A stretch of DNA of 32,000 bases from Candidatus Iainarchaeum sp. (GCA_030649345.1 JAUSKK010000038.1:54315-86314); one strand, 5' to 3'. Positions 797-22,358 are shown, numbered from the stretch's first letter. Numbers and translations: made by a program. The notes: generated from the letters alone by a model not told the origin.

Positions 797-826
797 AATT
801 AACTATTCAATAGAATTATTTGCAGT

Positions 827-3146: not shown

Positions 3147-3155
3147 ATAGTTTAG

Positions 3156-3197: not shown

Positions 3198-3233
3198 AAT
3201 ACTCTTTTAAATTCTTCTATTCCCTAAGGTTTT

Positions 3234-4661: not shown

Positions 4662-4669
4662 ATTTTTTA

Positions 4670-5869: not shown

Positions 5870-5955
5870 TGCTTTTTTTTTAAATAACCTAATTTTAGAT
5901 ATATTTATATATTTAGGTGACGTAAATATGTAATTAAGTGGTGTAAGGTGGTTTT

Positions 5956-6619: not shown

Positions 6620-6620
6620 T

Positions 6621-6630
6621 CTTTTTATAG
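6621..6630 (+). promoter_or_regulatory. TATA-like box for leaderless 6651 gene
   Basis: CTTTTTATAG lies 21-30 nt upstream of the ATG at 6651, with no SD. Confidence 0.4.
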
Positions 6631-6650
6631 TTCAAATTCATTCTTTTATT

Positions 6651-7256
6651 ATGCCTATTCCATCTAAGCGAATTCAAATATTGCTAGCTACTCCAGATTC
6701 TAAGCTTTCTGAATTTGAATTAAAAGTAAAAAAAGCGCAATTGGATGCTTTAACTCGTTTGGCCGAACATCGCATTCATAAACGGCCTTTTTTTCAAGGA
6801 AAGTCTCTTGCAGATTTTTCAGTAATGCATACGCCTGAATTTGAGAAAGATTCTTTACTATTTTTTTCTGCCCAAATAGCTATGGTTCATGCAATGCATT
6901 GGTATTCGGATAACGGAAAAAAGCTTTTGACTATGGATCATTTTCGCGATTTATTTGCTTTTGCAGCTCACGCCTATCATCCTGCTTTGGTGGAAGTTTT
7001 TCCGCGAAGATTTTTACGGTATGCTGAAGAGAATAATTTAAAGGTTCTTCCGTTGAAGCGTTTGCAAATCATGGCTGCGCGAGGTTTAACGCGAGAACTT
7101 TCCGGACTATTAGCTCATGCTGCTGGATTAAATCCACGAGATGTTTTATTTAGGTTTACTGGGTTTCCTTCAATTATTCATTCTCCGGGCACGCGTAAGT
7201 CTAGAGTAAAACTTAAACCTAGAATAAATTTACGGAAAAAGCCTAAGCCAAAATAA
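6651..7256 (+). CDS. Hypothetical protein with basic K/P/R tail (paralog A)
   Basis: Start chosen at MPIPSKR. Homologous to 7297..7905 (LL.TPD, W...NG+K.L, DL..FA). C-terminus is RKSRVKLKPRINLRKKPKPK. Confidence 0.7.
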   Translation: MPIPSKRIQILLATPDSKLSEFELKVKKAQLDALTRLAEHRIHKRPFFQGKSLADFSVMHTPEFEKDSLLFFSAQIAMVHAMHWYSDNGKKLLTMDHFRDLFAFAAHAYHPALVEVFPRRFLRYAEENNLKVLPLKRLQIMAARGLTRELSGLLAHAAGLNPRDVLFRFTGFPSIIHSPGTRKSRVKLKPRINLRKKPKPK

Positions 7257-7265
7257 TTTCAGAAG

Positions 7266-7275
7266 ATTTAAATTG
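7266..7275 (+). promoter_or_regulatory. TATA-like box for leaderless 7297 gene
   Basis: GATTTAAATT lies 22-31 nt upstream of the ATG at 7297. Confidence 0.4.
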
Positions 7276-7296
7276 AAGTTTGATGTATTCTTTTAA

Positions 7297-7905
7297 ATGC
7301 CGGATTCTTTTATTCCTTTAGCTCAGTTGTTGAAAACGCCTGATCGTGATTTGGAGCCTTTGGCTGTTGTAGCCAAGCATTCTCAATTTCAATTATTCAC
7401 TGCTTTGAAGTTATTTCGCACAGGTAACTTGAACGGAAGTATTGGAAAAGGAAAGCAAAGAATTCCTTCCAATGCTGAATTATTTGTTTTAGAAAGCAGA
7501 TTAAACATAATTGCTGAAGATGCTTTGGCTTCTGTTTTATTGTGGCGAACCAATAATGGAAGAAAAGTTTTGGAAACACGAGTAGCTCAAGATTTAATTT
7601 TGTTTGCAAAATCCAAATATCCTTTGGGTTTTGTTCAAAAACTAGCCAGGCATTTTGAGCATGCAATTGAAAAACACGAAATTGCTGTTCGCGAACCTGA
7701 CTTTGTAGACGCATTGTTAAGGGATCCTAGAGAGCGCGCAATTCGAATTGGGCAAGCGCATTCTGATCGATTTGTTGCTCGTGAGATTGCACAACGTTCT
7801 AAGCCTAGACCTAAACCTAAGCCAAGAATTCCAAAAAAACCAAAAAAGACAAATGCGTGGTCTGTTGTAAGAAATAAGTTTCGTTTTAAGTCTAGGCCTA
7901 AATAA
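7297..7905 (+). CDS. Hypothetical protein with basic KPKPK tail (paralog B)
   Basis: MPDSFIPLAQLLKTPD...; C-terminus is RSKPRPKPKPRIPKKPKKTNAWSVVRNKFRFKSRPK. Paralog of 6651..7256. Confidence 0.7.
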   Translation: MPDSFIPLAQLLKTPDRDLEPLAVVAKHSQFQLFTALKLFRTGNLNGSIGKGKQRIPSNAELFVLESRLNIIAEDALASVLLWRTNNGRKVLETRVAQDLILFAKSKYPLGFVQKLARHFEHAIEKHEIAVREPDFVDALLRDPRERAIRIGQAHSDRFVAREIAQRSKPRPKPKPRIPKKPKKTNAWSVVRNKFRFKSRPK

Positions 7906-7954
7906 TTCTTTAAAAAACCTTAAATACTAGTTTTGGTCTTGTTTGTTGGATCTT

Positions 7955-8524
7955 ATGGTTTTGAATAAATTTTATGACCGCTATGTAATGACTAACAATC
8001 TCAACTACAAGAACAATAATTTTTATTTATTAAAAACTCCGTTTGTAATGCTGCCAGTTGAATTATTGGGCGCCATGCTTAGAAACGAAGAAGCTCCGTA
8101 CGTTCAGTCTTTGTATTATTGGGTGAAACATTCTACGTTTAATAATTTAACCAAAGAATTTTTGACTGGAAGTGATTTGAATTCTAAAAAGGTTTTGGAT
8201 TTTTTTGAAACTTATTTTTCGGCTTCTGGTTTTGGTTTATTGCAGAATGTGGATTTAGATTTAGAACACAAGCATGCCATTGTTGTTTTAGTCAATAATC
8301 CCTTGCAAGGCAGATTAAATTTTGTTTCCCAGCTGCCTTTGGATCATTTTATGCGCGGAGTCTTAGCTGGATTATTTTCTAAATCTTTGAATTCAAATGT
8401 AGACTGTTTAGAAACTCAATGTTCTGTGTTTAACAAATTTAATGCCTGCAGGTTTGTAATTAAGCCTTTGAATGAATTTGATTTTCAAAATCCTGAAGTT
8501 CGAAGACAAATATTTATTCAGTAA
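7955..8524 (+). CDS. V4R (4-vinyl reductase) domain protein
   Basis: C-terminal DHFMRGVLAGLFS ... VDCLETQC ... ACRFVIKP matches the V4R pattern also present in 22372..22941. The start is uncertain: TTG 7943, ATG 7955 or ATG 7988. Confidence 0.7.
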   Translation: MVLNKFYDRYVMTNNLNYKNNNFYLLKTPFVMLPVELLGAMLRNEEAPYVQSLYYWVKHSTFNNLTKEFLTGSDLNSKKVLDFFETYFSASGFGLLQNVDLDLEHKHAIVVLVNNPLQGRLNFVSQLPLDHFMRGVLAGLFSKSLNSNVDCLETQCSVFNKFNACRFVIKPLNEFDFQNPEVRRQIFIQ

Positions 8525-8691
8525 TTCAAGTTTTACTTGGTTTATTGATTCCTAGGCTAAAGTAATGCGTTCGGTTTTCTTCTTTTTACTTCATTTTTTT
8601 CGGCATTTGTCCAATTACCGGTGCCCTTTTTATATTCTTTAGTGAAGAATACAATATAGTATTTTGGGTTAGTTTTAGTGGGGGCAATTGT

Positions 8692-9207
8692 GTGAATTTG
8701 CGGATAGTGTTAGCACTTTTTGTAGCTTTTATTGTTGCTGCCGGAATTTATCTTTATTCACCTAATTTTACTGGTTTGGTTGGATTAAGTGCTGTGAATT
8801 CAAGTGTTTCAATTCCAGAAGATCAGCCTTTAACAAATGCGCAAGTTCAAACTGTTGTGCAGCAATATCTTGCTGAAAATCCAATGCGTGCAAGTTATTT
8901 AAATTCTAAAGCACAAAGTAAATTGAATTCTGTTTTGCAAGAAAATCCTGGAATGACTAAAGAAGCTGTAACTGAATTAATGAATACTTTTACTCGTTCA
9001 CCGGAAGAAGAACAGCAAATGCTGCAAGAAATTGAACGCAATATGGCTGGAGTTGAAACTGTTGCAACCGGCGGGTATGAAGAAAATTTTATTTTTGGCG
9101 GAAGAACTTTTACTGAAACTGAATTAAAGAATATGACTCCAGAACAACAACAAGCATTTATTGAAGAATATGGTTTGCCAAATGGTTCGGAGGCGTATTC
9201 GAAATGA
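8692..9207 (+). CDS. N-terminally membrane-anchored protein, unknown function (first gene of surface operon)
   Basis: GTG start. MNLRIVLALFVAFIVAAGIYLY is a single TM/signal anchor. The stop overlaps the next start (ATGA at 9204-9207). GTGGGGG SD-like sequence at 8678-8684. Confidence 0.7.
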   Translation: MNLRIVLALFVAFIVAAGIYLYSPNFTGLVGLSAVNSSVSIPEDQPLTNAQVQTVVQQYLAENPMRASYLNSKAQSKLNSVLQENPGMTKEAVTELMNTFTRSPEEEQQMLQEIERNMAGVETVATGGYEENFIFGGRTFTETELKNMTPEQQQAFIEEYGLPNGSEAYSK

Positions 9208-10652
9208 AATTGCCGGCATTATTTTTTGCAGCAATTTTTTTCTTAACAATTTTTTCAATAAATGTATTTGCTATTTGGCCTTGGGATGAATGTGCTAATC
9301 CATCGGGCGGAACATTTACTGCGCCAGGTTCTGCAACTCAAAATGTTCACTGGTTTTATGATTCAGATGATTGGGCAAGTGCCTATATTCCTTCTTCAGG
9401 GAATTATGTGTTTTATTTGAGCGGGCCTAGCGGGCAAGACTTTGATTTGCAGCTATATTATTCCTGTGGTGGATCTCCGTTTCGGAGTTCCGCAGGCAGT
9501 ACGGCAACAGAATCTATTACTAACTACATATCTGGTGGTACAACTGTTCATATGCGTGTAATTGCATTTGGGAGCAGCAGCGGTAATTGGACTATGGGTG
9601 CCTATAAATCGTGTACTGCCAATACCAATTGGTGGTGTTCAAGCGGAGATGTGTATTGGTATGATTCTTGTGGAACCCGTGGATCTCTGAAACAAGATTG
9701 TACTGCCAGTCAAACTTGTTCTGTGGATGTTTGTGTGAATACTTGTACTTCTCATACTTCGTCTAGTTGTTCCAACGGTGATGTGTATTGGTATAATTCT
9801 TGCGGTACTCGAGAAGATTTAAGGCAAGATTGTTCGAGTTCTCAAATTTGTTCTGGCAATACTTGCCAAAATGTTGCCTGCTTTAATGATTCACAGTGTC
9901 CAAGTGATACTTTTGTTTCGAATACGCAAAGATGTTCTGCGTCCAGTGATGTAGAAGCTGTTTGGAGAAATTACTCGTGTGTCAATCCTGGAACAACTAG
10001 TTCGTCTTGTTCGTATGGTGAAGCCTATCAATTGTATGATAATTGCACATCTACTGAATATTGTAATTCCAGTACTAAAACTTGTCAATCATTTGCCTGT
10101 ACTTCTAATTCAAGCTGCGGAACCAATGCATATACTGGAAGCACGTTTTGTTCCAATAATGATGTTTACAAAAATAATGTAACCTATACTTGCAGTAATC
10201 CAAATACTTCGAGTTCTTCGTGTTCAAATTCAACCCAAGCAATTTTACAGCAAGACTGCGGTAATAATTCTACTACAACTTCCAATCGCAGATGTTCTGG
10301 TTCAGAAATTTTAGTAGACCAAACTGCAACTTTGCGCGGCTGTTCAACTGGAGCCTGTTATTCTTCAACTGGTTCAATTACTACTACAACAGAAACTGAT
10401 TGCAGTAATTTGAATTATTATGGAAGCACTGAATATTATTGTTCCAGTGATAATACGCAGAAAAGAAGCCGGCAATTGTATACTGGATTTTATTGCAATT
10501 CCAGTACAATTAGTTGTGCTCAAGGCAGTTCCTCGTATGTAAATGACCAATTGCTTGAAACCTGTGTATATGGTTGTTCAAGTGGATCATGCATTACTGC
10601 CAGACCCAATTTAGTGATTAGCAGTTCAGATATAACAATTGAGAAAACCTAA
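9204..10652 (+). CDS. Secreted Cys-rich protein with N-terminal PPC (pre-peptidase C-terminal)-like domain
   Basis: Signal peptide MKLPALFFAAIFFLTIFSINVFA. DSDDWASAYIPSSGNYVFYLSGPSGQDFDLQLYY ... VHMRVIAFGSSSGNWTMGAY fits the PPC pattern. This is followed by about 350 aa of Cys/Ser/Thr-rich modules. Confidence 0.8.
   Translation: MKLPALFFAAIFFLTIFSINVFAIWPWDECANPSGGTFTAPGSATQNVHWFYDSDDWASAYIPSSGNYVFYLSGPSGQDFDLQLYYSCGGSPFRSSAGSTATESITNYISGGTTVHMRVIAFGSSSGNWTMGAYKSCTANTNWWCSSGDVYWYDSCGTRGSLKQDCTASQTCSVDVCVNTCTSHTSSSCSNGDVYWYNSCGTREDLRQDCSSSQICSGNTCQNVACFNDSQCPSDTFVSNTQRCSASSDVEAVWRNYSCVNPGTTSSSCSYGEAYQLYDNCTSTEYCNSSTKTCQSFACTSNSSCGTNAYTGSTFCSNNDVYKNNVTYTCSNPNTSSSSCSNSTQAILQQDCGNNSTTTSNRRCSGSEILVDQTATLRGCSTGACYSSTGSITTTTETDCSNLNYYGSTEYYCSSDNTQKRSRQLYTGFYCNSSTISCAQGSSSYVNDQLLETCVYGCSSGSCITARPNLVISSSDITIEKT
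9636..9880 (+). repeat. Tandem 132-nt (44-aa) Cys-rich coding repeat, 2 copies
   Basis: CSSGDVYWYDSCGTRGSLKQDCTASQTCSVDVCVNTC versus CSNGDVYWYNSCGTREDLRQDCSSSQICSGNTCQNVAC. The GD codons sit at 9645 and 9777. Confidence 0.85.
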
Positions 10653-10662
10653 GGTGTAAAAA

Positions 10663-13600
10663 ATGTTGAATGAAAAAGCTAGAACACAATTGACTTTGGC
10701 ATTGCTTTTGTTAGTTGTAACTGGCGTTTCGTATTCTGTGTATGCTCCGCCGGGTGACAATGGAAATGCTCAGGATAATTTAAAAGATACTGATTTAATT
10801 TTTTCAACTGAAGAATTAAGTTCTTTGGAATTAAAACAGCAAGCTTTGCCTTATTTGAATTCTTTACTGAACACTGCAATTGAAGACGATCGCGCAAAAT
10901 TACTGGAAGCCAGAGATGCTGTTGAAGCTAGTTTGAATTCAAATTACTGGAAACGTTCCGGTGTTTTAGTTGTAGACAATCAAGTTTTTGAATTAAGTCA
11001 AACTGCAGCCAATCGAATTAAGACTTTATATAATCGTGAAAGTTCTGATTTGAATTCTGAACAATTATTGCTGGCAATATCGCGCATAGTTCAAGCAGAT
11101 CAGCAAGCAGCTGAATATACTTTGTTTTCTTTGCAGGAAATTTTTCCTCAATTAACAGATGAAAATTTGATTGCAACTATTCAGCCCATGCTTTCCAGTG
11201 CAGAAAATGCCTACGATCAAGCATTGCATCAGTTAAGTATTGGAAATTCGCCGAATGCAATTGTACACTTTCAAGAATCTTGGGATAATAGTTATCGTGC
11301 TGTTTTGTTGACTGATGAATTTACTATTCCGGAAGTAATCATTACAGAACCTTTGGCTGGCTGGTATACTCGTTTGGCCAGTATTTTGGTTTCAGGTACT
11401 CTTTGGGATGTTCAATTGGAAACCATTCCAAGTGTTGTGGTTGCAGTGAATGATTTGAATTATGTTTTCCCGCAATCCAATGGATTGTTTTCTGGAATTA
11501 TTTCTTTAACTGAAGGAAGCAATGCAATTGTAGTTTACGGAATTGACCAATATCAAAATATTGGAACTGCAGAAACTCAGGTAACTTTGGATACTATAGC
11601 TCCAGAAATTTTTGTAGCCGGTGTAGAAAATAATTCATTTAATCCAGTTTCTGTTACTCCGGTAATTGAGTTTTCAGATTTGCATTTAAATGAAACCAGA
11701 ATTGAATTAAACAATCAAATATTTATTTCAGGAACTGAAGTCTTAGAAGAAAAAGAATATTCTTTGGTTGTTTATGCTAATGATTTGGCTGGAAATGAAC
11801 AAACTCAGACTGTAAACTTTGTAATTGATCGCACAGTTCCAGAAATTGCTTTAATCAATCCCTACAATGGTCAGTTTGTGCACAATACACTAAATGTTCA
11901 AGGTACTGTGAGCGATACTTATTTAGATTACTATATATGGAAGATTGACGGAGTTGAAGTTGCACGCAATCAATCAAATTATTCTTGGAATACTCAAAAT
12001 TTTGAAGACGGAGAGCATACAGTAACTTTATTTGCAATTGATAATGCAGGAAACTCCAGTGAAACAACTGCTGCTGTTACAGTCGATAATACTTTGCCTG
12101 TGATTGAAGTTTCCGGCGTTTCAGACAATGAATTTTATAACTCTAACATTACTCCAGTAATTTTAGTTACTGAATTGAATTTAGAAATTCAGTTGTTTAC
12201 TTTGAATGATTTAGAATTTGTTTCAGGCACAGAAGTCAGTGCAGAAAATGAATACGATTTGAATGTAACTGTAATTGATAAAGCAGGAAATCGTGCTGAC
12301 CAAATAGTTTCATTTACGATTGACAAGACTGCTCCATTTGCTCAAATTGTAAATCCTTTGGAAAATTCCTTTGTGCATGAAATTGTTTCAATTCAAACTT
12401 TTGCAAGTGATTTGTATTTGGATACTCAAACTTTATTTTTGGATGGAACAGAAGTTTCTTCGAACAATTCTTTTGAATGGAATACTTTAGATTATTCTGA
12501 CGGCGAACATAGTATTGATTGGGTTGTAATAGATCAAGCAGGGAATTCTACAACAAGCAGTGTTTTGGTTACTGTAGACAATACACTTCCTGTTGTTTTG
12601 GTTTCAGGAATTCAAGAAAATGTTTTTTATAATTCAGATCGTGTTCCCTTGGTTGAAGTTCAAGATGTAAATCCAGATCAATTGAATGTATTTTTGAATA
12701 CTCAGCCTTTTGAATTAAGTAATTCCATTTCTTCAGATAACGAATATTCTTTTACTGCAATTGCTGTGGATCGTGCTGGAAATATTGGGCAGACTACTGT
12801 AAACTTTGTTTTGGATAAAACTGTTCCAGTAGTGGAAATTGTTTCTCCTGTAGAAAATTCTTTTTTGCGCCAAACTGTTGGAATCGAAGGACTTACAGAA
12901 GACAAGTATTTGAGTACAGTTGAATTATTGGTGGATGGAACTCTAGTTTCAAATAATTCTTTTTTTGAATGGAATACTTTGAACTATTCAGAAGGCTTGC
13001 ATTCCATTGAATTAATTGCTTTAGATTTAGCTGGCAATCAATCTAGTCAAACAATTCAAGTGACTGTAGATAATGTTTTGCCGGAATTGTTGGTTCAAAA
13101 TTTAACTGAAAATGGTTTGTATTTGAATTCTGATTTTACTCCCAAATTTGAATTAACTGAAACTAACCCTAGTGTAACCAGTTCTTTGTTGAATGATTTA
13201 GAATACAATTTGGAAACTGTAAGTGTAGATGGAGATTATGTTTTGGAAATTACTCACACAGACTTAGCTGGAAACTCCAATTCTTTGACTCGTACATTTG
13301 TAATGGATCAAACTTATCCAGTAACTTCAATTGATTCTCCAACTTCTGGTTCGTTTGTTCGCGGTATTGTTTTAGTTCAAGCTCAAGCCAGTGACTTGCA
13401 TTTGAGCCTAACTCAACTATTGATTGACAATGTTTTGGTTTCTTCTGAAAATGAATTCGAATGGAATACTTTAAATTACGCTGAGGGTGCTCATAAAGTT
13501 GAATGGATTGCTTTAGATTTAGCTGGAAATCAAACCAACAGTGTTTCGTATATTGTAGTAGATAATACTGTTCCAGTGATTGCTATTGTTGGAGTAACTG

Positions 13601-16600
13601 AAGGAACTTTTTATAATTCGAATCAAACTCCATTGGTTGTAGTTCATGAAACCAATCCTAAATTAACTCAAGCATTTTTGAATAACGAGCTCTTTGAATT
13701 AGATTCAACTATTGTTGAAGAAGGCGAATATACTTTAGAAGTTCAAACAGAAGACTTAGCTGGAAATACTGCTGTTCAATCTGTTTCGTTTGTAATTGAC
13801 AAAACTGCGCCTGTAACTTCCATTGATTCTCCAAGTTCTGGTTCGTTTGTTTCAGGCAATGTTTCAATTACTGCCAGTGCCAGTGACTTGTATTCTTTAA
13901 CTCATACTTTGTCTATAGATGGCCAAGTTTTGACTGAAAATAATTTTATGACTTGGAATACTTTGAATTATTCTGATGGCTTTCATGCAATTGAATGGCA
14001 TGTGCAAGATTTAGCAGGAAATGAAACCAATTTGACCTATGCTGTTACTGTTGACAACACAGTTCCAGTAATTGAATTTTTGAATTTAGAAGAAGGAACT
14101 TATTACAATCAGTTTTTGGTTCCAGAAGTTAAAATTACTGAAACTAATTTAGATTCAGTGCAGTATTTCTTAAACAATCAATCTTATATTCCTGGAACTG
14201 TAATTCAAGAAAATAAAGAATATGTTTTAGAAGTTCAAGCTTTGGATTTAGCCGGCAATCAATCGATTGAAAGTGTTTCATTTATTGTAGATACTTTAGC
14301 TCCAGTTGTGGAATTAAGTGTTCCGAGTGCCAGTAGTTTTGTTCGCGGGGTAGTGGAAATTTCGGGTTCAGTTTCTGATTTGTATTTGGATTCAACCAAT
14401 TTATTAATTGACAATTCTTGGGTTACTTCTGATTTACCATTTAACTGGAATACTTTAGATTATTCAGATGGAAATCATGTAGTTACTTTTACTGGAACTG
14501 ATTTGGCTGGAAACTCAACTACAGTTTCTGAAATCTTTACTGTAGATAATACTGTTCCAGTGTTTGTTTATGTTTTGCCGAATCAACCGTATACTCGCTG
14601 GGATGTATTGGTTGATTTTGTTTTAACTGAAATCAATAAAGGTGTTACTGAAGCTTTTTTGAATAATGAATCTTTTGATTGGCGTTCAGTAATTTCAGCT
14701 GAAGGAGATTACAATTTAGTTTTACGTCATACAGATAAAGCTGGAAATATTGCAGAAGTTTTGCGTACATTTACAATTGATAAAACCAAGCCTTGGGCTG
14801 AAATTTTAAGTCCAGAAAATAATTCGTTTGTTAAAGGAATTGTTCGCGTTTCTGCAGATGCGAATGACTTGCATGGTATTGTGTACCGTTTGGATGTAGA
14901 TCAACGTGTTTTAACTACTGGCAAATCCATTGACTGGAATACTTTTGTTGAAGGCGATGGCTTGCATGTTTTGAAATGGTTTGTAATTGATGTCGCAGCC
15001 AATGATATTTTAGTTGAACATACTGTTACTGTAGACAATACTTTGCCTGAAATTCGTTTCACCAATATTCAAAACGGAATACACTACAATTCTTCAATTA
15101 TTCCTGAAATTGAAATTGTGGAATTAAATTTGCAGAGCGTACATTATTTTTTGAACAATCAACCGTATGTTTTAGGTACTCCAATTTCTCAAGATAATGA
15201 CTATGTTTTGGAAATTCAGGTTACAGATAATGCTGGAAATTATGTTACGCGATTTATTAATTTTGTGATTGACACTACTGCGCCTGAAACAGTGTTAACT
15301 GTTCCAAACACAAATGATTTTGTAAAAGGCATGGTTTCAGTTACTGGTGAAACTTCAGATTTGTATTTAGACACCACTACTTTGTATATTGACAGTTTGC
15401 CAGTTGCGTATAGTTTTCCGTTTGAATGGAATACTGTAAATTATTCAGACGGAACACATACTGTAAGTTATACGGCTGTAGATTTGGCTGGCAATTCAAC
15501 TACTGTAAGTACAACAGTTAATGTGGACAATACTTTGCCGGCTGTAACCTATGTTACTCCAATTGTAAATTCGTATGTTCGCCAAACAGTTGAAATTAAT
15601 GCAACAATTGTTGAAACAAATTTGGAATTATTGGAATTATTAATTGACACTGAATTGATTAGTAATTCTTTGCCGTTTGAATTAAATACTTTAAATTATT
15701 CAGATGGAGAACATCAATTGTCTGTAACTTTAACAGACCAAGCTGGCAATTATTATAGAACGGATTGGACTGTATTTGTAGACAATACTGTTCCTGAATC
15801 GACTGTTTCTGAATTAATCGAGAATCCTACTTTGGTTGAACCTTTTTATTCTTTAACTGGAACTATTTTAGACTCAAGTAGTATTGAATATGTTCTAGTA
15901 AATGATCAAATGGTTTCTGTATTGGATGGAGATTTTTCATTTGATTTTAATGTAATCGAAGGTCGAAATACAATTACTGTAACTGCAGTTGATTTAGCTG
16001 GCAATCAAGTTGTTTTCTTGAAAGAAAGATTGGTAGACAAAGATTTGTTGCCTGATTTTTATGAATTATCTGTCTTGCAGTCTGATCCGTTGAATTCAGA
16101 TTCTGATTTTGGAACAACTGAAGCTGATGAATCAAATAACGAAATTTTGGATGATGCTGAAGATTTAGACCAAGATGGTTTGCCTACATTTGCAGAATAT
16201 TTTTATGGCTCTAATCCATTTTCAGATAATTCGGACGCAGATTCTTTGGATGATTTCTTTGAGTTAACTATGTCAGGCACTGATCCAGGAATTGCTGACT
16301 CAGATGAAGATGGCGTCTTAGATTCTGATGAAGACTTTGATGGAGATAGTTTAACGAATGCACAAGAAGAACAACTGCATGCCAATCCATACTTATTGGA
16401 TACTGATTCAGATGGCTTAGATGATTCTGTTGAATCTAGTTTAGGCACAAATCCAATTGAAGTGGATTCAGATCATGATGGTTTATTGGATGAAAGTGAA
16501 ATTTATTTGGAAAGCAATCCTTTGGTGTCAGATTCAGATAATGATGGTGTCTTAGATTCGTTGGAATATTATTCACAGACTTTTTCAGACTTGAATGGAA

Positions 16601-19341
16601 TTTTGCAAGTTACTATTGAAGGTCAAGGAGACTTGCGATACACTACTCAAGTTGTAGAAACACCTGAACCACATGCAGCATTGTTGGAATTACCGGATAT
16701 TGTTACAGGCTACTATGATATCTCTACGGATTCAAATTTTTTATCTGCTGTAGTGCGTTTGCATTATGCTGAAAGTGACTTGAATGGTTTGTTGGAATCT
16801 GAAATTCGATTATTTTACTACGATGAAGACTTGAATATTCTTGTAGAAGAATCCGTGCAAGGAGTGAATGAATCTGAAAATTATGTTTGGGCTCAAACTA
16901 CCCACTTTAGTTATCGTGCTGCTGGTTCCAGTAAAAATTGGAAAAGTCCAACCAGTTATCCTTGGAATCGCGATCCAATTGTTTATTCTTCTGGAGAAAC
17001 TTTGCGTTTGAAAGCCCGCGTTTATAATATTGGAATTGCTCCAGCTTCAAATGTTCCTGTGAGTTTTTATTCTGGAGATCCAAGTTCTGGTGGTGTTTTA
17101 CTTGGAACAGTTACTGTAAATAATATTCCTTCTGGTGGAAATGCTGAAGCAATTTTGACTTGGGTTGCCAGTTTGGATGTAGATTTCTTGTATGTTGTAG
17201 TGGATGCAGGCAATGTTATTGCAGAAGAATCTGAAACCGATAATAAAGCATTCCGTCAGTTTATCACAGAATTTAACGGCGATTCTGATGGTGATGGTTT
17301 AAGTGATTATGAAGAAATTAATGGAATGCGAACACAATTCAGTAATTTATTTATTAAGACAGATCCTTACGAAGAAGATACTGATGGCGATGGCTTAACT
17401 GATAATGTTGAAATGAATTTGGGTGGAGGAACTAATGCAAATCAACAGTATCTTACTAAAAGTAATCCATCTAAATTGGATTCGGATAATGATGGTTTAA
17501 CGGATTACGAAGAACTTGCTGGCCGGCAATTACGAATTACAAACAATCACTCAGATGCAGTTGCTTTATTGTCTGATTTGGAATTTGGAAATAGTTTAAG
17601 TGATAATGTGGACACTGGCACAGTTTATTCTGATGCATACATGGTTGACACCGATGCAGATGGGTTAACAGATTATCGCGAATTTGAATGGGGTTCAAAC
17701 CCCCGCTGGGTTGACTCAGATAGTGATGGACTAAAAGATGGTGTTGACGATGACCCTTCAATGTATGATGTTACTCCTCCAAGCGTGCAAATTGTTTCAG
17801 TTTATCAAGATGAATGGTTTGGATACAAAATTAAATATGTTGTGACTGCTACAGATTCATCTGGAATAATTGCTCATTGGATAATTCATGATGGCATACA
17901 AGTTGATTTTGCAACTTATGCTAATCGAAAAAATCCTGTGACTATTTCAGGTACCTTGGATGTCAGCTGGTTAAGTGAAAGTTTTACTGGCACTGTGGCT
18001 AACGTAAAAGTGGAGGATTATTCCGGTAACCAATTGATTAAAGACTTGTATTCTCAAGATGGTGTTGTCACTTCAGCCGCTGTTGCTGCTGTGAAAGAAA
18101 TTAATCGATTGTATTCTCAAGTGGATCCTTTTAGTGGGGGAATACAATCTGGAATTGCAATTAGTTTAATCCATCAAGGAGAAGATATTGTAGGCATAGT
18201 TAAAAATCCAGGCAGTATTTTGGATGGTATTCGTGGTTTAGGCACTGCAGTAGATGAGCAAGGTATTGGTGTGGTTTCTACTTTATATAATTCATTTAAG
18301 CAACGCATTGATGAATCGCATAATTCTTTGAATCCATTTAAATCCAGTGACTGGAGATATTCTTCTTATCAAGGTGGTTTTTACACTGGTTATGTGGGTG
18401 GCTTAATTATTACTTCCGTGGTAGGCGCTGGTGTTGTATCCAAAGGATTGAGTGTCATTAAAGCTGGAAGTTTAGTTTCTAAAATTTCAAAAATTAGCAT
18501 TGTAAAGAGCGCGCTGAGTATTGTAAAACAAACTCCACGAATGAAACTGTTATTGGGCGCAGCCGGAACTGTAGCTGCTACCTATTGGTTGAAAGAACAG
18601 TTCCCTGATATTGATGCATTGCAAACTTTGTCCGATTACCAAATAGGTTTTGCCACCATGGCATTAACTGCTGAAGCAGGTCCTGCCTTGGGTCGCATTG
18701 CAGGAGTTACAGCAGCTCAACAAAAACGCTTAGTTGTATTTCTTTCCCGAAATTCTAAATTTACTGTAGAAAATCGTGTGGCTTTCTTAAAGCCAGCATC
18801 AATTGACAACGGCGTAGCTAAAATATTCAGTGACTTGTCTGATGACTTACAGGATAATATTTTTATAGCATCTCACGGACAAGGCATTCCTTCATTGGAA
18901 CGTAGTGTAATTGTTTCTCGCACAAATCGATTGAAAAATGTCCCCGGAGTTGACGATGTTGTAAGGAATCTTAATAAACGTAATTGGCATGGTCATTATT
19001 TTGAATTAGATGCCGCGGATACTTTGCGAACGCGGGGTCATAATTTAATTGAATTATCTAAAAAATACCCTTTTGGTGACGGTGAACTGGATGTGTATTT
19101 CCAGCACTTAAATGGAAAGAAAATTGTTGCTGAAATAAAATCTATTCCGGCTGATAAATGGCTTACAAATAAAGGAAACTTAGATCCGCGTATTGATCGA
19201 CAATTGGATAGATATGCGCGACTTGTACAAACTGGCGATGCTCAAGAAGCATGGGTTATTTCAGAAAACACTATTTCTCCTGCTGCCAGAACGCTTATTG
19301 AAAACAAAGGAATTATTATAAAATATATTGGAGAGATTTAA
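10663..19341 (+). CDS. Giant (2,892 aa) multidomain cell-surface protein with C-terminal PD-(D/E)xK-like nuclease module
   Basis: Uninterrupted ORF with AGGTG 7 nt upstream. Domain order: N-terminal signal/anchor LTLALLLLVVTGVSYSVYA; helical region; Ig-like didomain array; two DxDxDG arrays; CARDB-like domain; hydrophobic helices (about 18370-18710); C-terminal E..D..ExK signature. Confidence 0.92.
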   Translation: MLNEKARTQLTLALLLLVVTGVSYSVYAPPGDNGNAQDNLKDTDLIFSTEELSSLELKQQALPYLNSLLNTAIEDDRAKLLEARDAVEASLNSNYWKRSGVLVVDNQVFELSQTAANRIKTLYNRESSDLNSEQLLLAISRIVQADQQAAEYTLFSLQEIFPQLTDENLIATIQPMLSSAENAYDQALHQLSIGNSPNAIVHFQESWDNSYRAVLLTDEFTIPEVIITEPLAGWYTRLASILVSGTLWDVQLETIPSVVVAVNDLNYVFPQSNGLFSGIISLTEGSNAIVVYGIDQYQNIGTAETQVTLDTIAPEIFVAGVENNSFNPVSVTPVIEFSDLHLNETRIELNNQIFISGTEVLEEKEYSLVVYANDLAGNEQTQTVNFVIDRTVPEIALINPYNGQFVHNTLNVQGTVSDTYLDYYIWKIDGVEVARNQSNYSWNTQNFEDGEHTVTLFAIDNAGNSSETTAAVTVDNTLPVIEVSGVSDNEFYNSNITPVILVTELNLEIQLFTLNDLEFVSGTEVSAENEYDLNVTVIDKAGNRADQIVSFTIDKTAPFAQIVNPLENSFVHEIVSIQTFASDLYLDTQTLFLDGTEVSSNNSFEWNTLDYSDGEHSIDWVVIDQAGNSTTSSVLVTVDNTLPVVLVSGIQENVFYNSDRVPLVEVQDVNPDQLNVFLNTQPFELSNSISSDNEYSFTAIAVDRAGNIGQTTVNFVLDKTVPVVEIVSPVENSFLRQTVGIEGLTEDKYLSTVELLVDGTLVSNNSFFEWNTLNYSEGLHSIELIALDLAGNQSSQTIQVTVDNVLPELLVQNLTENGLYLNSDFTPKFELTETNPSVTSSLLNDLEYNLETVSVDGDYVLEITHTDLAGNSNSLTRTFVMDQTYPVTSIDSPTSGSFVRGIVLVQAQASDLHLSLTQLLIDNVLVSSENEFEWNTLNYAEGAHKVEWIALDLAGNQTNSVSYIVVDNTVPVIAIVGVTEGTFYNSNQTPLVVVHETNPKLTQAFLNNELFELDSTIVEEGEYTLEVQTEDLAGNTAVQSVSFVIDKTAPVTSIDSPSSGSFVSGNVSITASASDLYSLTHTLSIDGQVLTENNFMTWNTLNYSDGFHAIEWHVQDLAGNETNLTYAVTVDNTVPVIEFLNLEEGTYYNQFLVPEVKITETNLDSVQYFLNNQSYIPGTVIQENKEYVLEVQALDLAGNQSIESVSFIVDTLAPVVELSVPSASSFVRGVVEISGSVSDLYLDSTNLLIDNSWVTSDLPFNWNTLDYSDGNHVVTFTGTDLAGNSTTVSEIFTVDNTVPVFVYVLPNQPYTRWDVLVDFVLTEINKGVTEAFLNNESFDWRSVISAEGDYNLVLRHTDKAGNIAEVLRTFTIDKTKPWAEILSPENNSFVKGIVRVSADANDLHGIVYRLDVDQRVLTTGKSIDWNTFVEGDGLHVLKWFVIDVAANDILVEHTVTVDNTLPEIRFTNIQNGIHYNSSIIPEIEIVELNLQSVHYFLNNQPYVLGTPISQDNDYVLEIQVTDNAGNYVTRFINFVIDTTAPETVLTVPNTNDFVKGMVSVTGETSDLYLDTTTLYIDSLPVAYSFPFEWNTVNYSDGTHTVSYTAVDLAGNSTTVSTTVNVDNTLPAVTYVTPIVNSYVRQTVEINATIVETNLELLELLIDTELISNSLPFELNTLNYSDGEHQLSVTLTDQAGNYYRTDWTVFVDNTVPESTVSELIENPTLVEPFYSLTGTILDSSSIEYVLVNDQMVSVLDGDFSFDFNVIEGRNTITVTAVDLAGNQVVFLKERLVDKDLLPDFYELSVLQSDPLNSDSDFGTTEADESNNEILDDAEDLDQDGLPTFAEYFYGSNPFSDNSDADSLDDFFELTMSGTDPGIADSDEDGVLDSDEDFDGDSLTNAQEEQLHANPYLLDTDSDGLDDSVESSLGTNPIEVDSDHDGLLDESEIYLESNPLVSDSDNDGVLDSLEYYSQTFSDLNGILQVTIEGQGDLRYTTQVVETPEPHAALLELPDIVTGYYDISTDSNFLSAVVRLHYAESDLNGLLESEIRLFYYDEDLNILVEESVQGVNESENYVWAQTTHFSYRAAGSSKNWKSPTSYPWNRDPIVYSSGETLRLKARVYNIGIAPASNVPVSFYSGDPSSGGVLLGTVTVNNIPSGGNAEAILTWVASLDVDFLYVVVDAGNVIAEESETDNKAFRQFITEFNGDSDGDGLSDYEEINGMRTQFSNLFIKTDPYEEDTDGDGLTDNVEMNLGGGTNANQQYLTKSNPSKLDSDNDGLTDYEELAGRQLRITNNHSDAVALLSDLEFGNSLSDNVDTGTVYSDAYMVDTDADGLTDYREFEWGSNPRWVDSDSDGLKDGVDDDPSMYDVTPPSVQIVSVYQDEWFGYKIKYVVTATDSSGIIAHWIIHDGIQVDFATYANRKNPVTISGTLDVSWLSESFTGTVANVKVEDYSGNQLIKDLYSQDGVVTSAAVAAVKEINRLYSQVDPFSGGIQSGIAISLIHQGEDIVGIVKNPGSILDGIRGLGTAVDEQGIGVVSTLYNSFKQRIDESHNSLNPFKSSDWRYSSYQGGFYTGYVGGLIITSVVGAGVVSKGLSVIKAGSLVSKISKISIVKSALSIVKQTPRMKLLLGAAGTVAATYWLKEQFPDIDALQTLSDYQIGFATMALTAEAGPALGRIAGVTAAQQKRLVVFLSRNSKFTVENRVAFLKPASIDNGVAKIFSDLSDDLQDNIFIASHGQGIPSLERSVIVSRTNRLKNVPGVDDVVRNLNKRNWHGHYFELDAADTLRTRGHNLIELSKKYPFGDGELDVYFQHLNGKKIVAEIKSIPADKWLTNKGNLDPRIDRQLDRYARLVQTGDAQEAWVISENTISPAARTLIENKGIIIKYIGEI
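11587..15795 (+). repeat. Coding tandem array: about 8.5 copies of a 492-nt (164-aa) Ig-like didomain unit
   Basis: The V-D-N-(T/V)-(L/V)-P boundary motif starts at 12082, 12574, 13066, 13558, 14050, 14542, 15031, 15523 and 15778. The spacing is 492 nt six times, 489 once, then a half unit. Each unit holds one ..EY.L.V...D.AGN...FxIDKTAP domain and one ..F.WNTL(N/D)YS(D/E)G.H...D.AGN..VDNT.P domain. Confidence 0.9.
16081..16560 (+). repeat. Thrombospondin type 3-like Ca-binding repeat array 1 (DxDxDG)
   Basis: DSDEDGVLDSDEDFDGDSL, DTDSDGLDD, DSDHDGLLD and DSDNDGVLD, each preceded by (S/T)NP. Confidence 0.8.
16993..17250 (+). other. CARDB-like beta-sandwich domain within giant protein
   Basis: GETLRLKARVYNIGIAPASNVPVSFYSGD ... 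IPSGGNAEAILTW ... LYVVVDAGNVIAEESETDNKA. The ending vvD..N.i.E..E.DN is typical of CARDB. Confidence 0.7.
17278..17757 (+). repeat. Thrombospondin type 3-like Ca-binding repeat array 2
   Basis: DSDGDGLSDYEE, DTDGDGLTDNVE, DSDNDGLTDYEE, DTDADGLTDYRE and DSDSDGLKDGVDDDP. Confidence 0.8.
18970..19338 (+). other. PD-(D/E)xK (restriction-endonuclease/Hjc-like) fold signature at C-terminus of giant protein
   Basis: HGHYFELDAADTLRTRG (E2781, helix), then GDGELDVYFQ (D2810, strand), then KKIVAEIKS (E2824-x-K2826, strand), then RQLDRYARL helix, then AWVIS strand. The order and spacing match the alpha-beta-beta-beta-alpha-beta core. Confidence 0.6.
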
Positions 19342-19343
19342 TT

Positions 19344-19976
19344 GTGTCTTCTGGTTTTGTTGCACAGTTTTATGTCTCTGGAAATTTATCTTCTGAAATT
19401 ATTTCCACTAAATTATTAAAAGTAGCACAAGTCCTACAAGAAAGTGGATTTACGCTTGAAAAAGAAAAATCTTTAGAATATACTTTTTACTGTAAAGAAA
19501 ACAGTTATTTTATGGAATTGTTTTTGTTTCAAGCTAATTCAGTGGATTCATTTAAGGTAATTGAATTATCAGCTACTTTAAGTTCACATCTTTCCCTGCA
19601 ATTTTGGAATAAACTTATTGATGTAGTTATCAAAGTATATAGTGTTATTCAACCAGAATTTGGATTGGGTGACGCGGAAGAGTTTTTTAATGATTTTAGA
19701 CATCCTAAAACTGAATTAGGCTGGCTTACTTTCTTTAACTCAAAACAAGTTCATTCACTGGGTGAACAAAAGTTTTCTCAAATTCCGGTGTGGAAATCAG
19801 GAGAATACGAATTGAAATTCGGAGAATACTTTGACAAAGTGTCTGCCGGCAAAATGCAGTTGTTACCTGTCTGGAAATGCGAAAAATTATCCGATGGAAG
19901 TTATCTTTTGGTATTGACTGAACAATTTGAAGGCTATCCTTCTCTAAAAGAGCTGAAACAACATTTAGGGTTGTGA
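19344..19976 (+). CDS. Hypothetical cytoplasmic protein, candidate cognate immunity/partner of the C-terminal nuclease module
   Basis: The GTG start lies 2 nt after the giant-gene stop (19339-19341). No signal peptide or TM segment. 210 aa with an alpha+beta-like composition and a GWLTFFNSKQV motif. Confidence 0.65.
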   Translation: MSSGFVAQFYVSGNLSSEIISTKLLKVAQVLQESGFTLEKEKSLEYTFYCKENSYFMELFLFQANSVDSFKVIELSATLSSHLSLQFWNKLIDVVIKVYSVIQPEFGLGDAEEFFNDFRHPKTELGWLTFFNSKQVHSLGEQKFSQIPVWKSGEYELKFGEYFDKVSAGKMQLLPVWKCEKLSDGSYLLVLTEQFEGYPSLKELKQHLGL

Positions 19977-19978
19977 AC

Positions 19979-20239
19979 TTATTTGTAGCTTTTGTACCAG
20001 CGTTCGTATTCTTTGTGCGTTTCAAAGCAATGCAGTATGTAAATGATTTCTTTTTCGATATAGTAAATAATTCTTGCTTGTTTTGTGACATTTTCTGTGA
20101 AATAAGGCAAGCCATGATTCAAGTGTTTGCTAACTGGATTGTCGGCAATTTTTTCAATATGTTTTCCAAATTGTTTGTTTAAAGGATTGGGTATTTTTTC
20201 AAGTTCTTTTTCAGCAGTTTCAAGAATTTGTATTTCCAT
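19979..20239 (-). CDS. RelE/ParE-superfamily toxin
   Basis: MEIQILETAEKELEKIP ... ARIIYYIEKEIIYILHCFETHKEYERW. The start was trimmed to the ATG at 20239, 1 nt after the upstream antitoxin stop (20241-20243). Confidence 0.75.
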   Translation of the reverse strand: MEIQILETAEKELEKIPNPLNKQFGKHIEKIADNPVSKHLNHGLPYFTENVTKQARIIYYIEKEIIYILHCFETHKEYERWYKSYK

Positions 20240-20240
20240 T

Positions 20241-20477
20241 TTACCACTTGAACTTTTTCTTGATTTCATTAAAAGACTTTGTTTTGATATTGCCTGCTTT
20301 CACTTCATCCATTTCTATTCGGATGCCTTTGGCAACCAGTTCTTTTTCTTCTTCATCCAGTATGCGTTCGTAAGCCAATAATGCCTGCCGAATTACTTCG
20401 GTTTGACTTCCAGCATATCCTTTTTCAATTGCTTTTTTTACAATAGTTTCATAAGGAATTCCCAAATTTACGTTCAT
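20241..20477 (-). CDS. ParD-like RHH antitoxin
   Basis: MNVNLGIPYETIVKKAIEKGYAGSQTEVIRQALLAYE resembles the ParD-type N-terminus (..G.Y.S.SEVIR.AL). GGAGG sits 7 nt upstream on the minus strand (20485-20489). Confidence 0.75.
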   Translation of the reverse strand: MNVNLGIPYETIVKKAIEKGYAGSQTEVIRQALLAYERILDEEEKELVAKGIRIEMDEVKAGNIKTKSFNEIKKKFKW

Positions 20478-20622
20478 TTCAGTTCCTCCAGTTCGATTTA
20501 ATGCATATATTTAATGTTCATTAAACTATATAAATAGTGCCTATTGAATGTGCATTAGATGATCATTTAATAACTATTTTTTAAATCAGGAAATCGTTTT
20601 TGTTGCCATTTTTTAGAAAAGG

Positions 20623-20630
20623 TTTTAAAG
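20623..20630 (+). promoter_or_regulatory. BRE/TATA-like element for hicB (leaderless)
   Basis: AGAAAAGG-TTTTAAAG ends 29 nt before the ATG at 20659, with no SD. Confidence 0.4.
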
Positions 20631-20658
20631 TACTTTTGCCAATAGTTTATTGATTGTT

Positions 20659-20871
20659 ATGAACTTTAAGGTAATTTTAGAGAAAGGTGAAGATGGTTTT
20701 TTTGTAGTGACTGTTCCTGCTTTGCCTGGTTGTATTTCTCAAGGTGAAACTGAAAAAGAAGCTTTGGATAATATTAAGGAAGCCATTGAATTGCATGTTT
20801 CTTCTTTGGCTGAAGATGGAATTCCGATTTCTCAGAAACAAGTTGTGAAGGAAGTTGCTGTAAGGTTATAG
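20659..20871 (+). CDS. hicB: HicB-family antitoxin (UPF0150)
   Basis: MNFKVILEKGEDGFFVVTVPALPGCISQGETEKEALDNIKEAIELHV is the canonical HicB N-domain. Start set at ATG 20659 rather than TTG 20650. Confidence 0.85.
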   Translation: MNFKVILEKGEDGFFVVTVPALPGCISQGETEKEALDNIKEAIELHVSSLAEDGIPISQKQVVKEVAVRL

Positions 20872-20872
20872 A

Positions 20873-21134
20873 ATGTCTAAGCTTCCGATTATTTCCGCAA
20901 ACGAAACGCTTGTTTCGTTGCGCATTAAAACGTGTTCGTTTTAATTGCGGAAAAGATTTATTGAAAATTTTATTAAAAAAAGGTTATTATATTCGAAACC
21001 AGAAAGGAAGTCATGTTCATTTGCGTCATTCTTTTTTGTTGCCTGTGACTGTTCCCAATCATAAAGTAATTGCACTAGGTACACTTAAAGCTATAATGAA
21101 AACTACTGGTTTAACTGAAAAAGATTTTGAGTAA
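20873..21134 (+). pseudogene. hicA: HicA-family toxin gene interrupted by a 52-nt insertion after codon 8
   Basis: The ATG at 20873 encodes MSKLPIIS, then runs into a stop at 20942-20944. The HicA core GKDLLKILLKKGYYIRNQKGSHVHLRH...VTVPNH...GTLKAIMKTTGLTEKDFE resumes at 20949 in the +1 frame. Removing 20897-20948 restores the canonical MSKLPIISGKDLL... reading frame. Confidence 0.75.
20897..20948. repeat. 52-nt double-hairpin palindromic insertion (REP/MITE-like) inside hicA
   Basis: Hairpin 1: AACGAAAC-gctt-GTTTCGTT (20900-20919), extended by CGC/GCG. Hairpin 2: CGCATTAAAACG-tgtt-CGTTTTAAT(T)GCG (20921-20949). The insert sits at the centre of what would be the palindrome TTTCC|GGAAA. The outer 9-bp inverted repeat is TTTCCGCAA/TTGCGGAAA (20892-20900 / 20945-20953). 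Confidence 0.7.
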
Positions 21135-21584: not shown

Positions 21585-22358
21585 ATGTATTTTATGGCTA
21601 GTGACCGAACACAAACAGGTATTGAAGGCTTGGATAAAGCATTAAATGGAGGCATTCCTTCAGGAAATTTAGTCTTATTGTCGGGTGGAGCTGGAACTGG
21701 TAAGAGTACCTTATGCTTGCAGTACTGCATTAATGGTTGTGTAAAATTTAATGAGAAAGCTTTGTTTATTTCAACAGAGCAAACGCCCACTGAATTACTA
21801 AGACAGGCTGCTCAATACAATTGGCCTTTGACTGATTTGATTAACAAAGGCAAACTCAAGATAGAATACTTTGATGTTACCAAAGGCGACGAGTTCTTGA
21901 AACGAATCGATGAAAGCATTGATCACTTTAAACCCAACAGAATTGCTTTAGATTCTTTAACCACATTAGCCGATGCTTTATTAATTTCAGACATGTCAGA
22001 AGAAACTGCTTTTAGTATGGTTCAAATTGCCGAAAGCGTAAACCCTATTCCAAGAACTGAACAAATAATTACAAAAACACTATTATACAGATTAATTGGA
22101 GCACTCAAAAAATATCATGTTACAACTTTACTCACAAGCGAATTGCCGGAAGAAGGAAAAACACTAAGCGCAGATGGAGTAAGTGAGTTTATTACGGATG
22201 GAGTAATTTTATTAAGTTATTTGAGTGTTGGTGCAACTGAATTAAGAGTTCTTAAAATAAGAAAAATGAGATATTCTGTTCACACTAAAGAATATCTGAC
22301 TTATGATTTTTCATCCAAAGGGCTTGAATGCAAACTTGAAGAACAGTTAAGTATTTAG
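21585..22358 (+). CDS. KaiC-like / RecA-superfamily ATPase (single domain)
   Basis: TGIEGLDKALNGGIPSGNLVLLSGGAGTGKSTLCLQY (Walker A), RIALDSLT (Walker B-like) and TTLLTSE. Alternative start at 21594 (MASDRTQ). Confidence 0.85.
   Translation: MYFMASDRTQTGIEGLDKALNGGIPSGNLVLLSGGAGTGKSTLCLQYCINGCVKFNEKALFISTEQTPTELLRQAAQYNWPLTDLINKGKLKIEYFDVTKGDEFLKRIDESIDHFKPNRIALDSLTTLADALLISDMSEETAFSMVQIAESVNPIPRTEQIITKTLLYRLIGALKKYHVTTLLTSELPEEGKTLSADGVSEFITDGVILLSYLSVGATELRVLKIRKMRYSVHTKEYLTYDFSSKGLECKLEEQLSI

Follow-up and report, generated by a model that had tools for sequence, protein, structure and literature searches.

A probable polymorphic toxin–immunity operon built around a giant protein with a predicted nuclease tip in a Candidatus Diapherotrites archaeon

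Results

Gene content of the operon and architecture of the giant protein

The stretch of DNA considered here, a 32,000-nucleotide (nt) window from a Candidatus Diapherotrites metagenome-assembled genome, carries a four-gene operon that is a candidate archaeal polymorphic toxin–immunity system. All of its genes lie on the plus strand, and their positions are given in the coordinates of the whole window. They comprise A (8692..9207; 171 amino acids (aa), GTG start), B (9204..10652; 482 aa), which overlaps A by 4 nt, C (10663..19341), which encodes a 2,892-aa giant made up of an adhesin-like body, a pre-tip module and a toxin tip, and D (19344..19976; 210 aa, GTG start), which begins 2 nt after C. 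An earlier reading made from the DNA alone (hereafter the sequence-only reading) had placed the four open reading frames (ORFs) at just these coordinates and had described a 4-nt ATGA overlap between A and B, a 10-nt gap with AGGTG between B and C, and a 2-nt gap between C and D. We find each junction as it was described, and the AGGTG of the B/C gap overlaps the stop codon of B.

The product of C is free of cysteine and very acidic (427 acidic residues). No segment of the protein is more hydrophobic than its signal-like N-terminus (aa 1-31, 10663..10755), which is a signal peptide or signal anchor and is conserved with P0003, the best relative of C (MBI2529735.1, Ca. Diapherotrites, 1,983 aa). 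Pfam searches with C matched Big_13 (11 stretches, E 2e-62), Big_7, Glucodextran_B, TSP3_bac and CARDB. An immunoglobulin (Ig) array, recognized by its Pfam matches (Big_13, Big_7 and Glucodextran_B) and by its repeat period, occupies aa ~230-1800 (11350..16062), with an Ig didomain repeated eight times at a 164-aa period. Further along are 11 DxDxDG motifs in two TSP3-type arrays, the first of which, of the calcium-binding type, has six motifs (aa 1834-1962, 16162..16548) and the second five (aa 2207-2356, 17281..17730); between them lies a CARDB domain (PF07705; aa 2109-2195, 16987..17247; E 2.2e-9, above the gathering score). The Ig didomains, DxDxDG arrays and CARDB domain on which the sequence-only reading had based an adhesion-type modular protein are therefore all present, and these matches mark the stalk of C as a putatively Sec-exported, calcium-binding Ig/TSP3/CARDB protein that is adhesin-like.

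Between this stalk and the tip lies a helical pre-tip module (aa 2481-2716, 18103..18810), the last part of the protein that is common to relatives with other tips. Its consensus is G..SG…DP….GI…NPY…F…WY.GY..G, and beyond this lie a Lys-rich stretch and helices of weak hydrophobicity. A full HMMER search with C aa 2467-2892 (426 aa) against 1.84 billion representatives returned 23 proteins besides C, and 17 of the 23 have the module, at a length of ~150-250 aa. A single-sequence AlphaFold2 model of the C-terminal 426 aa renders the module all-helical, at low confidence (predicted local distance difference test score (pLDDT) 40). Named members of the pre-tip/giant family come from Diapherotrites, Woesearchaeota, Altiarchaeota and Natrialbaceae, with shorter fragments from Halorussus and Methanolobus; there is no bacterial member among them, and the named relatives are annotated as 'hypothetical' or 'VWA domain-containing'. 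A word-index search with the pre-tip alignment returned six short fragments, and a metagenome scan with alignment A2 gave no matches. A word-index search with C aa 2381-2892 likewise gave no match, but it also missed C itself and seems to be saturated on low-complexity queries.

A predicted nuclease domain forms the C-terminal tip

The tip of C (aa 2717-2892 plus the stop codon, 18811..19341) is of a PD-(D/E)xK, Mrr/NucS-like type. The Mrr_cat family (PF04471) matched the last 192 aa at E 0.0015, with 103 of the 115 profile positions aligned. The same tip type is present in five small proteins among the 23 HMMER relatives, and an alignment of the tip family shows G2777, E2781, D2810, F2813, K2819 and E2824 to be invariant and K2826 to be kept in all but one sequence. 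The E..D..ExK signature that had been claimed for this region, formed by E2781, D2810 and E2824-x-K2826, is thus invariant or nearly so.

An AlphaFold2 model of the tip, based on a 9-sequence alignment, has an alpha-beta-beta-beta-alpha-beta core and good scores (pLDDT 86.3; predicted template-modelling score (pTM) 0.82). A Foldseek comparison of this model with the PDB retrieved NucS/EndoMS (2vld, 5gke), the nuclease domains of Card1/Can2, SfsA, EcoO109I and XisH. The top matches are all PD-(D/E)xK nucleases, with probabilities of up to 1.0 at 13-22% identity. Structure and profile searches, the check proposed for the C-terminus, thus find the PD-(D/E)xK fold, and as modelled the last 176 aa of C are a modular PD-(D/E)xK nuclease domain with its catalytic site intact.

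The tip is exchanged on a conserved scaffold

P0003 and C have the N-terminus, the Ig/TSP3/CARDB body and the pre-tip region in common, and their homology ends at C aa 2734. The locus of P0003 (L001) encodes, in this order, a counterpart of A (A'), a counterpart of B (B'), the giant and then a 162-aa ORF that has no similarity to D. The tip of P0003 is of a second family, found also in P0014, P0015, P0017 and two small proteins, and the profile of this family matches PDB entry 7M5F chain C ('Toxin CdiA') at E 4.3e-12. That structure is a BECR-fold RNase toxin from the contact-dependent inhibition (CDI) system of Serratia marcescens BWH57, in which H47/E51/H52 are conserved (PMC8616854). The motif 'GW.HI…H' of the archaeal BECR tips corresponds to these three residues.

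At least four tip types stand behind the pre-tip module: besides the BECR RNase, E…D…ExK nucleases of three groups occur there. Within the C family, variation is greatest in the tip. Tips are also shared by proteins that differ elsewhere: BLAST aligns the giant of the L007 locus with just C aa 2723-2892 (E 5e-14), so that the two have the tip alone in common. The cassette boundary is marked by the end of the L001 homology at aa 2734 and by the start of the L007 homology at aa 2723. As judged from these alignments, the C-terminus is a replaceable cassette behind a conserved junction.

A family of small downstream ORFs tracks the window tip

The sequence-only reading had described D as lacking a signal peptide, and D indeed has no hydrophobic segment. 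When 5.8 billion proteins were searched with D by word index, only D itself was returned, and a metagenome scan with the D-family alignment returned only the Hainich lineage. A D-family ORF follows the window tip type in six distinct loci (L005 and L014 being variants of one), and does so twice in L007. The carriers of this tip type are varied. They include P0007 (413 aa, with a signal peptide and a PKD-like domain; L005 and L014), P0021 (210 aa; L006), P0016 (273 aa, with a signal peptide) and the giant of L007/L008, which is otherwise unrelated to C. In every case the ORF after the window-type tip is a D homolog that either overlaps the tip gene by 4 nt or starts within 2 nt of it.

D matches the L006 ORF (L6_D) with a Smith-Waterman z of 12.5 and is 31% identical to the complete 209-aa ORF of L014 (E 7e-12); the tips of C and L014 are 30% identical (E 2e-18). 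Iterative searches united D, L6_D, L7_d1, L7_D, L8_D and L5_down.

BECR tips have other, unrelated ORFs behind them, 162-201 aa long. Homology is clear between two of these ORFs, L6_u1 from an NCBI metagenome assembly and L13_F from Altiarchaeota, and L1_D resembles L6_u1 weakly (z 4.4), whereas no grouping was found for L9_D, L7_d3, L11_D and L12_D among the ORFs after BECR-type tips. D showed no similarity to the ORFs after other tip types, and the alternative immunity candidates matched no significant Pfam family. Among the homologs, then, the D family goes with the window tip and other tips go with other ORFs, which is the co-variation of C-terminus and downstream ORF that had been put forward for checking. 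We predict that D is the cognate immunity protein of the tip, a cytoplasmic nuclease inhibitor.

One further locus carries a window-type tip that stands alone (P0018; L004, 3-951). An overlapping partial ORF on its 5' side ends in the pre-tip motif 'Y..F..GY..GY..G', and P0018 is probably the frameshifted end of a larger carrier, not a small protein.

Relatives of C carry arrays of orphan cassettes

The gene order in L007/L008 is a giant with a restriction-endonuclease (REase) tip, a D-like ORF (240 aa), a signal peptide joined to a BECR tip (232 aa), a 171-aa ORF, a signal peptide joined to an REase tip, and a second D-like ORF. The orphan REase tip is 73% identical to the last 259 aa of the giant, and the second D-like ORF is 64% identical to the first. 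In a haloarchaeal-type locus (L012) the array opens with a BECR-tipped VWA/TSP3 giant and a 162-aa ORF. After these come a fragment of 408 aa whose end is REase-like, an ORF resembling D (BLAST E 1.5e-6 against a small database) and a 600-aa ORF with the pre-tip module at its start; a gene of the immunity family Imm49 (PF15575; 15073-15397) closes the array. L013 (Altiarchaeota) and L006 have similar cassette arrays. In L012 we also note, upstream of the toxin gene and divergent from it, a gene for a 2,835-aa PQQ/beta-propeller protein (1-4824).

The orphan tips of relatives (L007, 4776-6822; L013, 10550-11404) have N-terminal signal peptides and start codons of their own. Typical bacterial orphan C-terminal fragments have neither. 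Given these features, the orphan tips may be independently expressed small secreted toxins.

Two accessory genes precede the giant

The protein encoded by A has one N-terminal hydrophobic segment (aa 1-27), in agreement with its earlier description as anchored by a transmembrane (TM) segment, and continues with an acidic, Cys-free helical region. The ORF at the same position in L001 (A') is 35% identical to A (E 1.5e-21). By these features aa 1-27 are a predicted membrane anchor or signal, and A appears as a conserved accessory gene.

B has a signal-like N-terminus and 38 Cys in its 482 aa, with Cys-rich 'C..GD.YWY.SCG' repeats after an N-terminal PPC-like region. It had been called secreted, Cys-rich and PPC-like. 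The first two terms hold, whereas Pfam detects no PPC domain in B itself; a PPC match (PF04151) was obtained in the L003 homolog of B only, at E 3.3e-4, which is below threshold. The 38 Cys of B adjoin the 2,892-aa C with none, a split of disulfide chemistry between co-expressed exported proteins.

The view that the two upstream partners have no equivalent needs to be qualified, in that both A and B are kept in the L001 operon and B-like sequences stand before the giants of L002 and L003. B' of L001 is 32% identical to B (E 2e-43) and keeps the 4-nt overlap, and the L003 homolog, directly 5' of a giant, is 27% identical (E 2e-16). In L002 a giant is again directly preceded by a B-like sequence, here the Cys-rich C-terminal part of an S8 subtilase of 1,155 aa (1642-5109; Peptidase_S8 domain, E 2.9e-56, plus an Ig domain). 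A and B are missing beside the giants outside the C clade (P0015, P0011 and P0014). B resembles the C-terminal, non-catalytic part of secreted subtilases, and on these grounds it may plausibly help to mature, release or present the giant.

The Woesearchaeota giant of L002 (JAGVZX010000108.1, 1642-10774) is split into overlapping ORFs (5106-6689 and 6686-10774), and an unsplit 1,927-aa giant, P0033, shares its 90% cluster; the two ORFs may be a true split or may stem from a frameshift or an assembly error.

No significant Pfam or NCBIfam family was found for A, B or D, and PADLOC assigned no family to A, B, D or the C-terminal 426 aa of C, the pre-tip module included. An anti-phage defence system had also been considered and was dropped because PADLOC found no defence-system family.

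The tip is likely to be exported

A stretch of C that the sequence-only reading did not mention bears on the side of the membrane on which the nuclease lies. Between the adhesin body and the nuclease, aa 2574-2599 are Gly/Ser-rich and moderately hydrophobic, with a Kyte-Doolittle peak of 1.88 over aa 2580-2599, and a Lys-rich stretch comes next. No comparable segment is present in P0003, P0005, P0006, the L007 giant or any of the halo-type members, several of which have Glu there. We summed apparent free energies on a position-independent scale, using Hessa-type values, and obtained +3.6 for aa 2574-2599 against +0.5 for C's own signal. The signals of most complete relatives gave -2.3 to +0.8 (P0005, +3.3), and all of the tail segments gave +1.7 to +9.8. 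In relatives the window tip type is fused straight to signal peptides or, in P0007, to a PKD-like domain with no hydrophobic segment between. From the weakness and poor conservation of the stretch, its poor free-energy score and these fusions, we infer that the tip is exported from the producer. Like the entry domains of CdiA-CT and colicins, the helical, Lys-rich and weakly hydrophobic pre-tip module may take part in membrane translocation.

Control signals and genomic neighbourhood

A TATA-box-like TTTTTATATT lies at 8627-8636, ~60 nt 5' of the GTG at which A starts, and a run of GGGGG at 8680-8684 lies 8 nt 5' of the same start. Together, TTTTTATATT and the GGGGG run could serve all four genes of the operon as a single archaeal promoter and a ribosome-binding site. 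Scans for sigma-70 promoters and terminators gave results at or below chance, these models being uninformative for an archaeon. The guanine-plus-cytosine (GC) content of the tip (0.365) and of D (0.327) is near that of the C body (0.350) and the window (0.346), so that GC content gives no indication that the tip-D cassette was recently transferred.

The neighbouring genes are archaeal and encode a KaiC-like ATPase, V4R proteins, a UbiA-family prenyltransferase and a geranylgeranyl-reductase-like flavoprotein. Directly 3' of D, on the minus strand, lie a ParE-like ORF (19979-20269) and a ParD/RHH-like ORF (20241-20477), and a second toxin-antitoxin pair, HicB-like (20650-20871) and HicA (20910-21134), lies 3' of these. 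An ORF with a PIN domain is found at 6110-6619. With the toxin-antitoxin pairs at 19979-21134 and the PIN ORF, the giant operon sits in a neighbourhood that is rich in conflict genes.

Farther downstream, the ORF at 24966-27842 encodes a 958-aa protein with a signal peptide, a very Gln/Glu/Asn-rich composition and a Cys-rich central block; it matches no Pfam family and looks like another uncharacterised secreted protein. A strong skew of A over T (0.32) at 25-26 kb falls within its DNA. V4R-domain proteins flank the operon, one on each side (7943-8524 and 22372-22941). The second of these genes adjoins the KaiC-like ATPase gene (21585-22358), with no evident tie to the operon, and the pair may be a signalling module.

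Discussion

Interpretation of the operon

We consider it likely that the operon is an archaeal polymorphic toxin–immunity system. This reading, which had been advanced from the sequence alone, is supported by the nuclease fold, the cassette boundary, the co-variation of tip and immunity gene, and the orphan arrays in relatives. The swapping of REase and BECR tips, the orphan arrays and the Imm49 neighbour point to a conflict system rather than to nutrition.

In such a system the tip would be exposed on the outside of the producer or set free there, perhaps following a cut near aa 2720-2735. It would then enter a neighbouring cell through the pre-tip module, acting as a membrane-translocation part, and degrade DNA inside the cell it has entered. 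D would bind and block the nuclease in the cytoplasm of the producer and of sibling cells, while membrane-anchored A and secreted, Cys-rich B would help to anchor, mature or present the giant. The target may be a competing DPANN strain or a host archaeon.

Several observations weigh against this interpretation. The Mrr_cat score of 19.1 bits falls just under the Pfam cut-off of 21, and a search of the PDB with the sequence profile of the tip family gave nothing meaningful. The pre-tip module has no Pfam family and matched no known pre-toxin domain, and the hydrophobicity of aa 2574-2599, with the Lys-rich stretch behind it, is compatible with a membrane anchor and a cytoplasmic nuclease. Some of the E-values of the D family were computed on very small custom databases. 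The polymorphism is seen among distant relatives, the bodies of which are ~30-37% identical, and no strain-level variants were found. A tblastn search found no further tip, pre-tip or immunity-like sequence in the window, which thus has a single cassette; orphan cassettes are common in polymorphic toxin systems and not obligatory. Finally, we know of no archaeal delivery route.

Three rival explanations were weighed. An exported nuclease with a cytoplasmic partner would also be expected if C were a surface or secreted scavenging nuclease that digests extracellular nucleic acids as food, with D as an intracellular inhibitor that does no more than protect the DNA of the producer until the nuclease has been exported. 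The giant would then bind surfaces or environmental DNA, the pair would be like barnase-barstar or NucA-NuiA, and no cell would be attacked. DPANN archaea are metabolically reduced, the small signal-peptide-plus-tip proteins P0007, P0016 and P0021 resemble simple secreted nucleases, and barnase-barstar-like pairs occur in some methanoarchaea (Zhang et al. 2012, PMC3482391), all of which favours scavenging. We nevertheless judge it improbable, since DNase/tRNase-type tip swaps, duplicated orphan arrays and the Imm49 neighbour are typical of conflict, and since PurA, IMPDH and RibBA are encoded within the window, so that the organism is not wholly dependent on scavenging. A view of C as purely an adhesin or surface structure, with its REase-like fold serving in non-catalytic binding or anchoring and D an unrelated neighbour, draws on the adhesion-type repeats that make up most of C and on a weak match of the tip to NA-iREase1 ('inactive restriction endonuclease'; E 0.0027-0.024). 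That match spans 34 residues only, conservation of the catalytic E, D and ExK extends over the tip family, and genes of the D family accompany the tip on otherwise unrelated carriers, translationally coupled to it by gaps of 2 nt or overlaps of 4 nt; this view we find hardly credible.

The sequence-only reading had raised, beside polymorphic toxins, a likeness to the SPEARE proteins. On such a view C would be self-anchored, with aa 2574-2599 as a true TM helix and the nuclease in the producer cytoplasm, where it would degrade DNA imported from a host under the regulation of D. SPEARE proteins of Nanohaloarchaeota have exactly such a topology, combining a serine-protease region, laminin-G and other adhesion domains, a BC-toxin-like region and a C-proximal TM helix with a type III restriction-enzyme region, which lies in the cytoplasm and is better conserved than any other part (PMC6642349). 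The Kyte-Doolittle peak in C and the Lys-rich stretch after it fit the positive-inside rule, and the S8 protease gene 5' of the Woesearchaeota giant of L002 brings protease, adhesin and REase elements together. Yet the stretch is Gly/Ser-rich, scores far worse than C's own signal, is absent or interrupted by Glu in P0003, P0006 and all halo-type members, and has no counterpart where the same tip is fused to a signal peptide or PKD-like domain. C has no peptidase, laminin-G, type III restriction (ResIII) or helicase domain; its tip varies more than any other part, whereas the cytoplasmic part of SPEARE is the most conserved; none of the relatives that the HMMER search found for the C-terminal 426 aa is longer than 2,144 aa; and an RNase tip in the orthologous position makes little sense for the processing of imported DNA. 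We therefore set the SPEARE-like proposal aside as very unlikely.

Returning to the polymorphic toxin–immunity reading, a bolder extension of it is one that we take seriously without quite favouring it. The pre-tip module, A and B might together be an archaea-specific toxin-delivery scaffold of DPANN, Altiarchaeota and haloarchaea that carries interchangeable nucleases, some of them from bacterial CDI, and crosses an S-layer and a single membrane without a bacterial-type secretion machine, in DPANN for use against a host or rival episymbionts. If this is true, it would amount to a novel class of polymorphic-toxin delivery and would help in finding out how DPANN archaea attack or compete. The locus itself offers a compact test case in DPANN, with a 176-aa nuclease whose catalytic residues can be named, a 210-aa candidate inhibitor, a junction at aa 2723-2734 and two accessory genes. 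The homolog of a CdiA-CT RNase on the same scaffold in a sister genome is direct evidence of the exchange of toxin cassettes between domains of life. Validation of the system would show how archaea with small genomes compete with or attack their neighbours and would provide new nuclease–inhibitor pairs.

Comparison with known systems

The predicted nuclease has the same core fold and the same E…D…ExK constellation as the Mrr, NucS-EndoMS and Card1-Can2 nucleases, to which its sequence similarity is marginal. Those are cytoplasmic enzymes that act in repair or restriction or are ancillary to CRISPR, whereas the tip of C is the terminal cassette of an exported protein.

The closest parallels in organization are provided by bacterial polymorphic toxin systems (PMC3482391), with which the operon shares an exported repeat stalk, a swappable C-terminal nuclease, a conserved junction and a co-varying downstream immunity gene. 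The orphan toxin/immunity cassettes of such systems are likewise found in relatives of C, though not in the window, and differ from bacterial orphans in that their tips carry signal peptides of their own. A comparison with CdiA/CdiI is prompted by one alternative tip, that of L001, which is a sequence homolog of the Serratia CdiA-CT (7M5F, E 4.3e-12). Neither a CdiB/Omp85 partner nor FHA repeats were found in the operon or its neighbours, so this is not a CDI system, and there is no VENN or Rhs junction motif at the tip, the sole VENN lying at C aa 321 inside an Ig repeat. The present system differs from the bacterial ones in belonging to an archaeon, with no outer membrane and no type V, type VI or type VII secretion system (T5SS, T6SS, T7SS), in its Ig/TSP3/CARDB stalk, and in a junction module, A and B genes and an immunity family that have no Pfam family.

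Among archaeal surface proteins, SPEARE resembles C in being a giant DPANN protein with adhesion domains and an REase-type C-terminal region after a hydrophobic stretch. That stretch is a bona fide C-proximal TM helix in SPEARE, whereas in C it is weak and unconserved. The VARTIG proteins of Thermococcales (PMC8416519) are, like C, archaeal Ig surface proteins with a hypervariable C-terminus, variable downstream genes and an organization like that of polymorphic toxin systems. They differ in that the variable part is an Ig domain and not an enzyme, that there is no nuclease/immunity pair, and that they belong to another lineage and sequence family.

Polymorphic toxin systems were at one time described as rare in archaea, which were also found to lack most of the immunity families (Zhang et al. 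2012, PMC3482391). Archaeal systems were later predicted to be widespread, although none had been experimentally characterised as of 2021 (PMC8416519), and those with PD-DExK and colicin-D-type toxins are among the ones predicted (PMC6393860; PMC8416519). As summarised in these two sources, the predicted archaeal systems are like the one described here in their exported multidomain proteins, their PD-DExK or BECR (colicin D-like) toxins and their adjacent small genes, and in being known from genomics only. The system described here is thus of a kind already predicted in archaea, to which it adds a carrier, two accessory genes and an immunity family that are unannotated.

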